Shown: positions 52,268 to 57,747 of the stretch, piece after piece
Layout of the letters: each line of letters starts with the position of its first letter
Numbering within the stretch: position 1 is the stretch's first letter
NCBI GenBank assembly: GCA_015064745.1
Contig: SVRR01000002.1
Span: forward strand, 74,454 to 138,453
Direction: 5' to 3'
Source: Oscillospiraceae bacterium
GTDB lineage: Bacteria; Bacillota; Clostridia; Oscillospirales; CAG-272
DNA: 64,000 nt
Translations under genes and position numbers: made by a program
The notes under the pieces: model-generated
What the model was told of the DNA's origin: nothing
Databases searched by the model: none
The model's input: the letters and a program-made list of their open reading frames with translations, nothing else

Positions 52268-52318
52268 AAATAGCGCGAGTTTCAAAAGAAACTCGCGCTA
52301 TTTGTGTTTTATTTTTTT
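52268..52318. terminator. strong bidirectional terminator (16-bp stem)
   Basis: AAATAGCGCGAGTTTC-aaaa-GAAACTCGCGCTATTT (52268-52303), then GTGTTTTATTTTTTT. Marks the left edge of the AT-rich block. Confidence 0.8.
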
Positions 52319-53472
52319 CTGTAAAATGTCACGCCGTCGTTGTCCGTTCTCCATTCTTGGTTGCAGTCGTCGTAGAATTTGCCATCGTGCGTTTCTTCGA
52401 TGGTATAGGTTACGCCGTTTTCGGTAACCTCCCACTTTCTTGGCTGCTTCGGCGTTGTAGGACGATCCTTGAATATTGCCTTAAAGATGAAATAGCAGAT
52501 CGCAAGCAGGATAGCCAACAGAATCATGGGTGCATAGATCAAAAAGCCGCATCCCACGAGAGCGTAGGACCATTCGGGCAGCTTTTTGCAGAAATAGAAA
52601 TATCCCCCAAGAATGCAAACAAGCGAGATGATGACCAAAAGAAGATTCCAAGTCATATCCTCTTTGTCGCTGAATTGGCGTATTACGCCGATCGAGGTTA
52701 TCAGTGTTAGAGCCGTACCGATCACGCAAAGCGGCTTGCTCGTCTTCTCCGAAAAGGGATGATGTACGCCGAGATAAACGAGATAGGAGGGAAGAAGAGC
52801 ATAGCACCAAAGGGATACGTAGTCGTAGTCGAAAATTTTTTCAACGATCTCGAAATCGAAACAATTTCCCAAACTTTGGAGCAGATAGGATATACTGCCT
52901 ATCCCATTGCCAAAGGTGTTGAAGAGGATAGCAGGCAGCGAACTGTAGAAATTGATGGAGCCCAAATTCGCAACGAGCAACAGGAAAATTCCTAAATAAA
53001 ATGCGGAAATGATTATAAAAACACTTCTTCTTTCGATGAAGGTTTTTTTCTCTTCCTCTGTTAAGCCTACAGCCTTTTTTGCCCAAAGCAGTGTCAAAAT
53101 ACCGAGAACGCCCGCAAGCACGGGAAGCCAGTCAACCATGATTGGAGACCACCACTCGCAAAACAGCTTTTGAAAGTGCTTAAAGCTCTCACTTTCGATT
53201 CCGAACATAAGTTTTAGGACGTATGGTATGTACCGACGAAAAAGGCCCCAAAAAATCATTGTTATACCGGCGTAGTAGCTCTTTTTGAGGAAAAAAGATA
53301 ACAATAGGTTGACGGCGATTACCGAGATCCAAAAGAGCATAAAGCTGCCGAAAGAATCGTCTTTGCGGTAATATTCGTGAGTCATAGCCAATACCAAAAA
53401 CAGAAGTACAGAATCAATGATGCCCAAAAGAAGGGGGTAATTAAGAGATTTCTTTGTTTTGACGGTTTCCAT
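52309..53472 (-). CDS. hypothetical polytopic membrane protein (~9-10 TM) with a small soluble C-terminal tail
   Basis: 387 aa, AAAGGAGA RBS. Hydrophobic throughout. The tail is PRKWEVTENGVTYTIEETHDGKFYDDCNQEWRTDNDGVTFYRKK. AT-rich codon usage relative to the flanks. Confidence 0.7.
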   Translation of the reverse strand: METVKTKKSLNYPLLLGIIDSVLLFLVLAMTHEYYRKDDSFGSFMLFWISVIAVNLLLSFFLKKSYYAGITMIFWGLFRRYIPYVLKLMFGIESESFKHFQKLFCEWWSPIMVDWLPVLAGVLGILTLLWAKKAVGLTEEEKKTFIERRSVFIIISAFYLGIFLLLVANLGSINFYSSLPAILFNTFGNGIGSISYLLQSLGNCFDFEIVEKIFDYDYVSLWCYALLPSYLVYLGVHHPFSEKTSKPLCVIGTALTLITSIGVIRQFSDKEDMTWNLLLVIISLVCILGGYFYFCKKLPEWSYALVGCGFLIYAPMILLAILLAICYFIFKAIFKDRPTTPKQPRKWEVTENGVTYTIEETHDGKFYDDCNQEWRTDNDGVTFYRKK

Positions 53473-53652
53473 AATTGTCTCCTTTAAACAATCAAATTAC
53501 AGATTTTTTCCATGGGGGCTCCTCGAAGCCTTTTATTACGAGTTGATCGATCTGTCTGCTCCGGATGCGCCGAGTGCGAACACTGTTCTTTATTTGGGAA
53601 GTACGGCGAGTGAAGTGACCGCCATTTAGTTCACAAGCCGTACTTTTTAGGA

Positions 53653-55032
53653 TTAACGAAAACCGATTTTAATCTCCTCCTCATATGGCTCCCACATTTT
53701 CAACGCCTTATCAACCGCTTTGAACGGTCTTGCAGCGCAATAATTGTCACAGCAGTTTTCGCCCTGTACCTCTTTATGGCCGCGATTCGTACAAAAATAC
53801 TTAACATGCTCTTCGGAAATGATTGTACCGGTATTCACATTTTCCGTTCGCTTAACAGTTTCACCGCCATACAAGCAAGTCTTGCACGTTTGATTTTGCT
53901 CAAAAAGTGATGCACGAAGTGACAATGGAAGGTCAAAGTTTATCTTGCCGTCGCTTGTTTTTTCTCCCAAGAGCTTTCCTTCCTCACATGCCAAACGCAA
54001 TGCCTCGCGGAGAACCAACATAATGTCCTTTGCTTCTTGAAGCTCGGCAGAAACTCTGGATTCTTCACTCTTGTGGTTCTTATTTGATTTTACAGTATAA
54101 ACAACATAAATATCAATTATTATCCAAAACGCTCCCCATAACAAGCAAAGCGTGCCAAAGGTGCGACCTAATTCGTGCGAAGCGAAGCAACGAAAAACAA
54201 GTCCGACGATCAACGGAACTACACAAAAGAGGAAGCTGTTGATTTTTCCCGCAACCTTTCGGCGTTTGAGAGCTCCGTCTTTTTTTTCTAAATCTTCTAT
54301 CTTTTTTTCTTGGTCGCGAATAGCACGTTCACACGCTTTTATACGTATCGTGAGGTCTTCTTCCTTCGCGCGCGTGGAAGCGGTGCTTCGTGCGCTTGCG
54401 GTCGATTTTTGCTCTTTTGGGGAAGCCGGCTTTTTTTCTTGCACGGCGCACGAAAGCGAGAATTGATTGGAATACGTTTTTCCCTTGAAGACTTCCTTCC
54501 ATTGCCGGCGGGAGCCTGCATAATGCACCTTTTTAGTGCTTCCGCTGAAAGCATACTCCTCGATGACTTGTACGGAGATCGGAACGTGGATCTCTTTGAT
54601 CACTGTGCCGCTGAATGCAGATCGGCATATTTTTTTAATACCATCGGGTAAAACCACCTCTTTGAGAGAAGAAGCCTTGTCGAAAAGAGCCCACGGTATT
54701 TCGATCAAGCTCTGAGGCAACACAACCTTTTTTAGCGCGGAGCAGGAGGCAAACGTGTGATCTCCAAGAACCTTGATCGAATCGGGAAGAATGATTTCCT
54801 CTAACGAGGAGCAGCCATTAAAAGCATAGCTTTGAATACTCAAAAGTGTGTCGGGGAGCGAGACGGAGCGAAGCAGGGAACAGCAGTTAAAGGCCGAGTG
54901 GCGAATTTCGACAACGCCCTCGGGCACCTCCGCGTGCTCCGCAAGAGTATCCTTCAACCGAATGATGGCATACCTTCCATCACCGAGATCCTCGTAATCA
55001 AATGCGTTTAATTTTGCTTCTAACTCCGTCAT
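53653..55032 (-). CDS. BspA-type leucine-rich-repeat protein fused to a coiled coil, TM hairpin and Cys-rich C-terminal module
   Basis: AAGGAGA RBS and an acidic N-terminus with no signal peptide. LRR_5-like repeats (IRHSAFNCCSLLRSVSLPDTLLSIQSYAFNGCSSLEEIILPDSIKVLGDHTF...). Two TM helices (FLFCVVPLIVGLVF, LCLLWGAFWIIIDIYVVY). C-terminus CKTC...C...CCDNYC. Confidence 0.8.
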   Translation of the reverse strand: MTELEAKLNAFDYEDLGDGRYAIIRLKDTLAEHAEVPEGVVEIRHSAFNCCSLLRSVSLPDTLLSIQSYAFNGCSSLEEIILPDSIKVLGDHTFASCSALKKVVLPQSLIEIPWALFDKASSLKEVVLPDGIKKICRSAFSGTVIKEIHVPISVQVIEEYAFSGSTKKVHYAGSRRQWKEVFKGKTYSNQFSLSCAVQEKKPASPKEQKSTASARSTASTRAKEEDLTIRIKACERAIRDQEKKIEDLEKKDGALKRRKVAGKINSFLFCVVPLIVGLVFRCFASHELGRTFGTLCLLWGAFWIIIDIYVVYTVKSNKNHKSEESRVSAELQEAKDIMLVLREALRLACEEGKLLGEKTSDGKINFDLPLSLRASLFEQNQTCKTCLYGGETVKRTENVNTGTIISEEHVKYFCTNRGHKEVQGENCCDNYCAARPFKAVDKALKMWEPYEEEIKIGFR

Positions 55033-55202
55033 AGTTTCTCCTTAACGTCTTTTATTGTGCGGAAATTAATCCGTCTGTTAAATGTTTGCATTGCCTATCG
55101 GCACGATTAATTTTTCGGGCGCCTCGATCTCGTAAGCCAAGCAACACTTCGCTTTTGACTCTCTTACCATCAATGACGCCCGATTTTGTTAAGATAGCCG
55201 TT

Positions 55203-57350: not shown

Positions 57351-57375
57351 TTTCGACATTCACTAGATGTCAAAG
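57351..57375. promoter_or_regulatory. palindromic candidate operator in the lipoprotein / XRE divergent region
   Basis: TTTCGACAT-tcactag-ATGTCAAAG (GACAT/ATGTC core is perfect). ATGTCAAA recurs at 57420-57427. GACATTCA (57355-62) and TGAATGTC (57417-24) form an 8-bp inverted pair bracketing a TATAAT at 57393-57398. Confidence 0.4.
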
Positions 57376-57449
57376 ATGCCATGATTATAGCATATAATAA
57401 TAAAAAAGTCAAGCACTGAATGTCAAAAATTCAAAAAAGAGGTCAAAAA

Positions 57450-57695
57450 ATGTTCAAAACAAAGACGGACGGTGGAAACAATAACGTTTGCGGTAAGAAC
57501 GTCTATCTGCTCCGAAAAGCCAAAACGCCGAAGATGTCTCAGCGTGCTTTGGCGGATAAGCTCCAGCTTTACGGTATGGACGTCGATAAAAACGCCGTTC
57601 AGCGTATTGAATGTGGCAAGCGCTTCGTGACCGACATTGAACTTTTGGTACTCGCACAAGCACTTTCCGTCTCCGTGGACGAGCTTTTACAATAA
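57450..57695 (+). CDS. XRE family helix-turn-helix transcriptional regulator
   Basis: MSQRALADKLQLYGMDVDKNAVQRIECGKR is a Cro/C1-type HTH. ATG 57450 is preferred (AGAGG RBS 8 nt upstream) over 57420. Confidence 0.8.
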   Translation: MFKTKTDGGNNNVCGKNVYLLRKAKTPKMSQRALADKLQLYGMDVDKNAVQRIECGKRFVTDIELLVLAQALSVSVDELLQ

Positions 57696-57705
57696 AAGAA
57701 AAAAT

Positions 57706-57747
57706 GCCCCGCGCGTCCGTATGGATCGCGCGGGGCTACCTTTTTTT
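57706..57747. terminator. bidirectional terminator (10-bp GC stem)
   Basis: GCCCCGCGCG-tccgtatggat-CGCGCGGGGC followed by TACCTTTTTTTATT. Lies between the XRE gene and the convergent GH2 gene. Confidence 0.8.

Follow-up and report, generated by a model that had tools for sequence, protein, structure and literature searches.

A variable lipoprotein locus of ruminant-gut Clostridia as a candidate pore-forming toxin locus with a new head class

The window analysed here is a stretch of 64,000 nucleotides (nt) from an uncultured ruminant-gut Clostridia bacterium (contig SVRR01000002.1), and the subject of this work is a locus of four open reading frames (ORFs), A to D, at 52268-57747 of that stretch. 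According to the ORF listing, A (52309-53472, minus strand) encodes a polytopic membrane protein of 387 amino acids (aa), B (53653-55032, minus strand) a 459-aa protein with leucine-rich repeats (LRRs), transmembrane (TM) segments and a Cys-rich module, C (55203-57314, minus strand) a 703-aa lipoprotein, and D (plus strand, open frame at 57420-57695, 91 aa) a predicted XRE-type helix-turn-helix (HTH) regulator. Each of the minus-strand genes A, B and C carries AAGGAGA or AAAGGAGA 5-7 nt upstream of its ATG. Two bidirectional terminators bound the block: an intrinsic terminator with a 16-bp stem at 52268-52303, which ends the C-B-A operon and the convergent GNAT_C gene, and a terminator with a 10-bp GC stem at 57706-57736, between D and the convergent GH2 gene. 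Both lie between convergent gene ends and have A and T runs on either side. An earlier annotation, made from the DNA letters and the ORFs (hereafter the original prediction), had grouped the four genes into one undescribed envelope or surface module; the ORFs, the AAGGAGA-type ribosome-binding sites (RBSs) and the two strong terminators that it described are all present. Here, the lipoprotein C and the regulator D are examined, with their relatives, as the core of a candidate pore-forming toxin locus.

The arrangement seen in the window recurs in five or more further, independent runs of bovine or faecal metagenomes. Contigs from other runs cross the A-B and B-C junctions without one difference, so the arrangement is not an assembly artefact.

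Architecture of the lipoprotein and its sister loci

Alignment of homologues divides C into a lipobox, a low-complexity linker, a head of 280 aa, a conserved tail core and GGNGG repeats. Residues 1-65 (57120-57314; this and all other parts of C lie on the minus strand) comprise a lipoprotein signal peptide with the lipobox LSAC and Cys24, followed by an N/G/D-rich linker. The lipobox (MKKAKHILSWLLALAMLTSMLSAC) fits the pattern [LVI][ASTVI][GAS]C, the h-region spans aa 10-28, and Cys24 is invariant in six homologues, which bears out the previous description of C as a lipoprotein. Residues 66-345 (56280-57119) form the head domain, termed X, which belongs to an extracytoplasmic family and is a candidate pore-forming head. 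Within it, aa 166-215 (56670-56819) are a candidate membrane-inserting beta-hairpin, rich in Ser, Thr, Ala and Gly and amphipathic with a period of two. The beta-rich tail core occupies aa 346-530 (55725-56279; KYVFKGCYNTQN...NFTIQIDAEHDIEIVL...QNITVTLTVNGESIL...AIDFSAS), and the Gly-rich GGNGG/GGxGG repeats, which are common to lipoproteins with CDC (cholesterol-dependent cytolysin) heads and with MACPF heads, occupy aa 531-703 (55206-55724). Thus, the lipoprotein nature and the Gly repeats of C had been recognized, while the 280-aa head and the conserved tail core had been overlooked. The likeness of the repeats to PGRS sequences, also proposed earlier, holds in composition only: there is no PE domain and no PGRS-related match in Pfam or NCBIfam, and a PE_PGRS relationship was rejected. 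A role as a sporulation lipoprotein was rejected as well, having as its sole basis the cotJ genes nearby and a weak YhcN/YlaJ match limited to the signal peptide. At 55426-55775 of the window, three contigs of other metagenomes (X2, X3 and X7) join across 110-290 bp of GGNGG repeats, sometimes with other letters between, which suggests either repeat-length variants of the tail or repeats collapsed by the assembler.

Protein homologue searches covered 5.8 billion proteins, among which C had nine matches: its own protein (P0001), five proteins of the same architecture (P0002-P0006) and three that match in the tail only (P0007-P0009). The last three carry Flg_new (Listeria-Bacteroides repeat) and MACPF in place of the head of C, and P0007 and P0009 match PF01823. 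The tail core is 42-77% identical across P0002-P0009, MACPF-head proteins included. Moreover, the tail of C aligns with the tails of CDC-head lipoproteins (hhalign probability 99.3%, E = 1e-20, a score that is partly compositional), and the tail of one of these, from locus L012, shares 62% identity with the P0002 tail across 190 residues. No relative emerged among PDB sequences for C or A, or for the profiles of the head, the tail and A (best E 0.26-0.95). A full-length AlphaFold2 model of C, built from a six-sequence alignment, was poor (pLDDT 47), and Foldseek on that model was uninformative.

The locus occupies a common chromosomal slot, between a GH2 gene and GNAT_C/cotJABC, which is filled differently among related genomes. 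In the window, the XRE gene and the X-head lipoprotein are accompanied by B, a relic of a 235-aa gene, and A. Locus L004 combines an XRE gene and an X-head lipoprotein 62% identical to C with one 235-aa gene, and has neither A nor B. Two further loci carry, beside an XRE gene, a lipoprotein with a Thiol_cytolysin head: L012 (824 aa), together with a 231-aa gene, a 244-aa gene and an A homologue, and L011 (829 aa), together with an A homologue. The heads of L011 and L012 score 86.6 and 82.3 bits, respectively, against Thiol_cytolysin (PF01289; cut-off 25), with domains D1-D3 covered and no domain 4. They carry YY/FF...YGR (YGR at residue 273) and a downstream Gly pair, in accordance with the signature by which CDCs and CDC-like proteins (CDCLs; Evans et al. 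2020, PMC7527733) are defined, F/Y-F/Y...YGR with a pair of Gly. A constant scaffold at one locus carries different toxin-type domains, with X and CDC heads in the slot itself; MACPF heads occur on the same tail.

The clearest case is the comparison of L004 (X head) with L012 (CDC head). The flanks of these two loci are 94-98% identical in nucleotides and the heads are unrelated, which indicates that the head has been swapped between near-conspecific genomes, with the regulator, promoter, tail and terminator retained. Divergence is also uneven where the head type is the same: between the window and L004, flanking proteins are 64-97% identical, D 89%, the tail core of C 77% and its head 55%. 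Protein A of the window is 56% and 52% identical to its homologues in L012 and L011, respectively, with flanking proteins at 52-96% in those comparisons. Between L001 and L015, the downstream gene for a TM and zinc-ribbon protein is 99% and the regulator 87% identical, and the lipoproteins only 56%. Such fast divergence together with outright replacement of the head would fit a conflict locus.

Several related loci lie in settings of their own. Approximately 3 kb from the MACPF-head locus L006 there are three tandem large serine recombinase genes and a sigma/HTH_16 pair (L006 16036-20946), and this copy may lie beside or on a mobile element. Near the X-head protein P0005 in L002 (1-999 and 18465-21740) are a TIR_2 and Sel1/TPR protein and a 1091-aa protein with faint Glug matches, perhaps conflict or surface genes without a connection to the locus. 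When JGI metagenome contigs were scanned, once with the profile of the tail and once with that of the whole family, no locus was confirmed, and a scan of viral contigs confirmed no relative, with nothing to suggest a phage-borne locus.

The regulator, gene A and the inserted gene B

The divergent HTH gene is the most constant companion of the lipoprotein. The gene D of the original prediction stands, with its start moved from 57420 to, most likely, 57450 (57450-57695, plus strand, 81 aa), because every orthologue begins MFKTKTDGG and an AGAGGT RBS precedes that ATG. D scores 21.5 bits against Pfam HTH_3, slightly below the cut-off of 23, matches PHROG families of transcriptional regulators and repressors, and in PADLOC is matched only by generic controller HTH models ('control protein'). 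Its orthologues in L004, L012 and L011 are 85-91% identical (89%, 85% and 91%, respectively), and the C-D intergenic region is almost invariant among the window and these three loci. The predicted promoter of the C operon (57384-57412, minus strand) consists of TTGACT, 17 nt and TG-n-TATAAT, with an extended -10 box and a score of 11/12. Two putative operators accompany it. O2 (57355-57371), with the sequence GACATTCAcTAGATGTC, is a 17-bp palindrome located 13-29 nt past the -10 box for C; in L011 its symmetry is perfect (8+1+8, GACATTCA-g-TGAATGTC), and it is kept in L004 and L012. O1 (57408-57424) includes the half-site TGAATGTC and overlaps the -35 box, and its sequence GACATTCAGTG is kept in all four loci. 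The inverted repeat behind O1 (I3) pairs 57351-57362 with 57417-57428 at 92% complementarity. This geometry would be that of a repressor blocking RNA polymerase. The conserved promoter and putative palindromic operators support the assignment of the XRE gene as a divergent regulator, and a regulated locus for an envelope or surface protein, as originally proposed, is likewise supported. At 57380-57401, the divergent -10 boxes of C and D seem to overlap in a short palindrome (ATGATTATA / TATAATAAT, repeat I5); given this overlap, the two promoters may be mutually exclusive, or co-regulated through the same operators.

A small HTH gene lies beside the lipoprotein gene in every context recovered (12 loci, 8 distinct), mostly in divergent orientation, with three HTH subtypes represented. 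The contexts with such a divergent or adjacent gene are L001, L002/3, L004/5, L006-8, L009/10, L011, L012, L015, L021 and L022. The conserved core of the locus is the divergent pair of D (XRE) and C (lipoprotein), which occurs in each of the 8 distinct related loci with available upstream sequence. The co-occurrence check suggested with the original prediction thus gives a divided result: the C-D pair stays together, while independence of the genes elsewhere is true for B and partly true for A.

Protein A has 7-10 hydrophobic segments, which agrees with its previous description as polytopic with about ten TM segments. It ends in a conserved, beta-rich domain of approximately 45 aa (WxVxENGxxYTI...DDxNxxWxTDxGGxxFYR), and has no relative in Pfam or PDB. 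Beyond the copy in the window, homologues of A form four clusters among the proteins searched, to which the divergent L001_351 and L021_242 can be added. L001_351 is encoded upstream of an X-head lipoprotein, and L021_242 downstream of P0024, a distant member of the family; in L021_242 only the C-terminal domain is still recognizable (WxVTEGxxTYT...TDDGGxTFxR). All A homologues but one lie in this locus type or in the same chromosomal slot, the exception being that of L017, a 3.9-kb contig on which the incomplete gene upstream of the homologue is not a lipoprotein gene. A-like genes adjoin X-head and CDC-head lipoproteins in five distinct loci. On these sequence relationships, A recurs as a partner of these lipoproteins and is a candidate for an immunity or accessory/handling role.

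A second accessory family, of 231-244 aa, is represented in L004 (6521-7228) and, as a tandem duplicate, in L012 (4334-5029 and 5073-5807). The N-terminal halves of its members are variable, the C-terminal domain is near-identical (GGCYVATCVYGSYDCPEVWTLRRYRDDTLGASWYGRLFVRVYYAVSPTLVKWFG...), and no Pfam match was found; these proteins may be an alternative immunity protein or partner. In the window, a 9-codon ORF, MEKICNLIV* (53484-53513, minus strand), is what remains of the 5' part of the 231/235-aa accessory gene known from L012 and L004. The relic has its own GAGGAG RBS and recurs in L018 (1-140), and it shows that the lineage of the window lost the accessory gene by deletion.

Gene B has a different history. 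In its product, a BspA-type LRR_5 domain without a signal peptide is followed by a helical linker, a TM hairpin at aa 266-311 and a Cys-rich C-terminal module. The LRR domain, TM hairpin and Cys module given in the original prediction are confirmed by Pfam (LRR_5, PF13306, aa 42-166, 112.1 bits against a cut-off of 27.7, E = 2e-32), by hydrophobicity and by conservation in P0015, respectively; in PDB, B finds BspA-type LRR structures (4fs7 at E = 6e-46). By the positive-inside rule, the LRR domain is probably cytoplasmic. The sole homologue of the C-terminal half among the 5.8 billion proteins is P0015, a standalone protein of 243 aa on a 942-bp contig, with 50% identity and the Cys module kept. 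A TM and Cys-rich cytoplasmic layout recalling this half is seen in 130-135-aa proteins with TM and CxxC...CxxC zinc-ribbon elements, encoded downstream of the X-head lipoprotein in L001 (12114-12506) and L015 (10216-10623); BLAST finds no similarity of these proteins to B. None of the 12 related loci contains B. In L018/L019, the closest relative, with an A that is 88% identical, window positions 55130-55034 (upstream of B) are joined directly to 53558 onward (upstream of A). Moreover, a leader of approximately 44 bp is present on both sides of B, as an upstream copy at 55034-55077 (minus strand) that includes the B RBS and as a downstream copy at 53515-53558 (minus strand), and L018 54-97 aligns to both (window 55077-55034 and 53558-53515). 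Because its flanks are contiguous in L018/L019 and the leader is duplicated on either side, B is a lineage-specific insertion, and would be a passenger in this locus. The claim of a four-gene module is therefore not supported, B occurring in no related locus and A in some of them and not in others.

The head domain X

The head of the window protein has no sequence match in Pfam, NCBIfam or PDB. As for the profile searches proposed with the original prediction, only LRR_5 (B) and a generic HTH (D) were matched, with A and C left without a match. Its statement that the locus holds no enzyme, integrase, phage or known defence gene is upheld, with nothing specific found in PADLOC, PHROGs, Pfam and NCBIfam. 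A profile of the head, searched against 1.84 billion representative proteins, retrieved 368 clusters at E < 1e-3 and 88 at E < 1e-10. The resulting family of approximately 370 clusters at 50% identity consists mostly of Firmicute lipoproteins and large surface proteins. Among 145 full-length representatives, 129 have signal-peptide-like N-termini and 86 lipobox-like motifs. Fusions to Flg_new, LRR_5, cohesin/dockerin and SLH modules occur in the family, and in the ten full-length members scanned no Pfam domain covered the head region.

An AlphaFold2 model of the head, built from an alignment of 36 sequences, reached a pLDDT of 80.6 and a pTM of 0.81. In this model, three strands (domain residues 39-52, 193-212 and 217-236) make up a long sheet, against which helices at residues 80-152 are packed; confidence is lower for the helices than for the sheet. 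In the average of the 36 sequences, aa 166-215 have the strongest period-2 beta hydrophobic moment of the domain (1.1-1.55, against a background of 0.6-0.75), a low alpha moment and an S/T/A/G content of 44-57%, in a stretch that AlphaFold2 draws as helices. Sequence of the beta-hairpin type folded as helices on a sheet is a hallmark of the metastable insertion elements of CDC, MACPF and CPE-type toxins. As a control, the same beta moment was computed on the CDC heads, where the top two windows, with values comparable to those at aa 166-215, were aa 193-212 and 304-323. These fall where both transmembrane hairpins (TMHs) are expected from the numbering of perfringolysin O, which we take to be ~190-217 for TMH1 and ~288-311 for TMH2.

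Known pore-former families were compared with the head in several ways. C has no match to PF01289 (Thiol_cytolysin) and none to PF01823 (MACPF) by profile, and the F/Y-F/Y-Xn-YGR motif lacks a counterpart, there being no YGR in the head of C when read by eye. The head likewise has no Pfam match to Aerolysin, ETX_MTX2, Clenterotox or Toxin_10. In the weak Foldseek list against PDB, approximately 10 of the top 15 entries are beta-pore-formers of the aerolysin type (CPE, BinAB, Cry35Ab1, monalysin), none of them significant, and a search of the viral structures in BFVD found nothing. On these comparisons, the head may be either a very divergent small beta-pore-former or a new fold of the same logic.

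Interpretation and setting of the locus

The slot, promoter and tail that C has in common with CDC-like and MACPF proteins argue for a system of the pore-forming toxin type rather than a generic surface system. By analogy, the balance tips modestly towards a pore-forming toxin locus of the CDCL/BSAP kind whose head represents a new class and whose protein A would be a candidate immunity protein or partner. Under this interpretation, D would bind O1, over the -35 box, and O2, over the transcription start of C, and would keep the operon off, as the position and conservation of the operators suggest. On derepression, C would be exported and lipidated at Cys24, and would be surface-held or shed on its flexible N/G/D-rich linker. 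The tail, core and GGNGG repeats together, would fill the place of the receptor-binding domain 4 of cytolysins and, judged by its position, may serve target recognition. The head would oligomerise on the target membrane, where aa 166-215 may refold from helices into the beta-hairpin of a beta-barrel pore. By analogy with the CDCLs and BSAPs of Bacteroidota, the role would be antagonism of competing microbes or grazers in the ruminant gut, with A as a dedicated partner, most plausibly for self-protection or toxin handling. The fuller claim is held more tentatively and falls short of an even call: that the head is a new class of beta-barrel pore-former, interchangeable with the CDC and MACPF types on one shared Gly-rich targeting tail, with A-type proteins as dedicated immunity or handling partners, the whole being a Gram-positive counterpart of CDCL and BSAP systems.

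A number of results weigh against the toxin interpretation. The best Foldseek match of the head in PDB is the C. perfringens enterotoxin CPE, at E = 0.17 and TM 0.24, so that the structural comparison originally suggested gave a confident model of the head and no significant structural relative. In hhalign, the head family aligned with the MACPF heads P0007-P0009 at a probability of 0.1% and with the CDC heads of L011 and L012 at 0.4%; the head as a divergent MACPF/CDC domain was dropped on these values (<1%). A Pfam scan of 36 head sequences gave sporadic, sub-threshold matches only, to CEL_III_C, Binary_toxB_2 and MspA. The amphipathic stretch at aa 166-215 could also consist of surface strands or of a glycosylated region, and is not decisive. 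The serine-rich NCBIfam model NF033849 ('ser_rich_anae_1') has weak matches in 20 of the 36 head-family members (best E = 7e-5); the window protein C itself has none at E <= 1. Equivalence of position amounts to reasoning by analogy, and the anchored toxin of a Gram-positive cell must cross its own wall to reach a target. An A-like gene is absent from L002, L004, L009 and L015, where other small membrane or Cys-rich genes take its position, and A is therefore no obligatory immunity factor. Finally, the conserved C-terminal domain of A follows a Lys/Arg-rich segment and is thus probably cytoplasmic, unlike extracellular inhibitors of the CD59/BcdI type.

Some of these results would be expected if C were a non-lytic surface lipoprotein (an adhesin, an S-layer-associated protein or a glycan-decorated 'serine-rich' protein), with a binding or structural head and a tail serving as a generic display scaffold. 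In the head family, fusions to Flg_new, LRR_5, cohesin/dockerin and SLH modules often occur, the closest curated model is that of a 'serine-rich protein', the head has no significant toxin-fold match, and Gly-rich repeat tails are frequent in surface proteins. However, the other heads found on this tail, among the nine matches of C and in L011 and L012, are MACPF and CDC only, with no enzyme or adhesin head, and the head conserves a 50-residue beta-amphipathic stretch that is modelled as helices. Moreover, putative tight repressor control, fast divergence of the head and a dedicated, fast-evolving membrane partner are a combination typical of toxin loci and not of a housekeeping adhesin. We regard this alternative as unlikely but not negligible. 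A different possibility is that the operon is a self-lysis or abortive-infection module in which loss of the repressor, through phage or stress, lets C permeabilise the producer's own membrane from outside, with A setting the threshold. The small XRE regulator is akin to controller proteins and phage repressors, the lipobox would anchor C to the membrane of the producer itself, and the locus is variable and AT-rich. Nevertheless, A, B and C have no match in PADLOC-DB 2.0, no relative was found on the viral contigs scanned, and no defence genes adjoin in the window or in most related loci; a defence island was rejected since none surround the locus. Known CDCL and BSAP relatives target other cells (PMC11169675), and a long receptor-type tail with swappable heads suits the targeting of foreign surfaces, which leaves self-lysis improbable. 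More improbable again is a single co-functional, undescribed envelope module of A, B, C and D with B as an integral part. The genes on the minus strand run in one direction with matching RBSs between a single pair of terminators, several metagenomes show the same arrangement, and LRR_5 is fused to the X head in the large family members P0055 and P0060. On the other hand, B is missing from every one of the 12 related loci and sits between duplicated leaders at a site whose flanks are contiguous in the nearest relative; its C-terminal half is a near-orphan, and as a signal-less protein with a probably cytoplasmic LRR domain it is unlike the secreted LRR_5 fusions.

If the locus is of the pore-forming toxin type, three groups of known systems are relevant. 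CDCLs are lipoproteins with a non-CDC domain 4 that are antibacterial, kill related bacteria and are accompanied by an operon-encoded immunity protein (PMC11169675, PMC7527733, PMC12853789). The locus resembles the two-component CDCL toxins of Bacteroidota in its lipoprotein signal peptide, gut origin and variable locus (PMC7527733; Abrahamsen et al. 2024, PMC11169675; PMC11952106). It also has the order of a head followed by a non-CDC region in the position of domain 4, which in CDCLs serves targeting, and the operon-encoded protective protein of CDCLs has a candidate counterpart in A; its sister loci L011 and L012 have true CDC/CDCL-type heads with the same tail and the same promoter. Unlike CDCLs, the window head has no detectable CDC homology, there is one toxin gene instead of a long/short pair, and the producer belongs to the spore-forming Clostridia (cotJABC adjoins) and not to the Bacteroidota. 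The tail is a beta-rich core with GGNGG repeats, the candidate partner is polytopic and not a surface lipoprotein such as BcdI, and an XRE repressor is always attached. With the BSAPs, the MACPF antimicrobials of Bacteroidales (PMC12853789; bioRxiv 10.64898/2026.08.05.742979), the locus would share a pore-forming head with specificity-determining flanks and strain-variable loci for gut antagonism, and the tail relatives P0007-P0009 have MACPF heads; C itself has no MACPF domain, and phylum, tail and regulation are different. The likeness to toxins of the aerolysin/CPE type (ETX/MTX2, Toxin_10, CPE, monalysin) lies in an elongated sheet with a packed, amphipathic, Ser/Thr-rich stretch of approximately 50 residues, which in those toxins is the transmembrane hairpin; with no significant match, membership is not established. 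NF033849 overlaps the head family weakly and partially, and the model carries no functional information. A system of this kind, a lipoprotein pore-former with swappable architecture, is thus already known, and what appear to be undescribed in the literature and libraries searched are the head domain, the Gly-rich tail as a scaffold of three head types, the A-type partner and the setting in ruminant-gut Clostridia.

Pore-forming toxins for antagonism between gut microbes have so far been characterised mainly in Bacteroidota (BSAPs and CDCLs). The present loci suggest that uncultured ruminant-gut Clostridia may run an analogous cassette, with a fixed repressor and promoter, a fixed targeting tail and exchangeable heads. 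One head of this cassette has no established place in any known toxin superfamily and yet is widespread, with hundreds of clusters. If it forms pores, it would represent a new class of pore-former and give a function to a large unannotated domain family, and the loci would offer a natural set of head-swapped proteins for the study of how targeting and pore formation are combined. If it does not, the annotation is still corrected: the four genes do not make up a single module, B being an insertion unrelated to the rest.

The setting of the locus in the window is as follows. To the left of the block lie the GNAT_C-domain gene and cotJA/B/C, and to the right the GH2 glycosidase gene and a sugar transporter. 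The hairpin at 52268 is the top site of the terminator scan and is homologous to the operon-end hairpins of L004 and L012; the stem at 57706-57736 was read from the sequence and is absent from the list of the scan, and across the window terminator-like sites are not above chance (19, against 14 +/- 4.3 in shuffles). A, B and the head of C have GC contents of 0.435, 0.459 and 0.462, respectively, against 0.527 for the left flank and 0.52 for the whole window. The AT-richness that had been described is thus a real dip in these three parts, but a modest one, as the right flank has only 0.484 and the Gly-rich tail of C is GC-rich (0.561). The product of the GH2 gene (57746-60076, minus strand), which resembles a beta-glucuronidase/galactosidase, has a C-terminal extension of ~135 aa (aa ~640-776) with many Lys, Met and Gly residues (...KKKMKANKKGEKGKSGG...MMGMMNISF...KKKKQ). 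The extension lies outside all family matches, and the GH2 orthologues in L004 and L011 are similar in length (750-751 aa).

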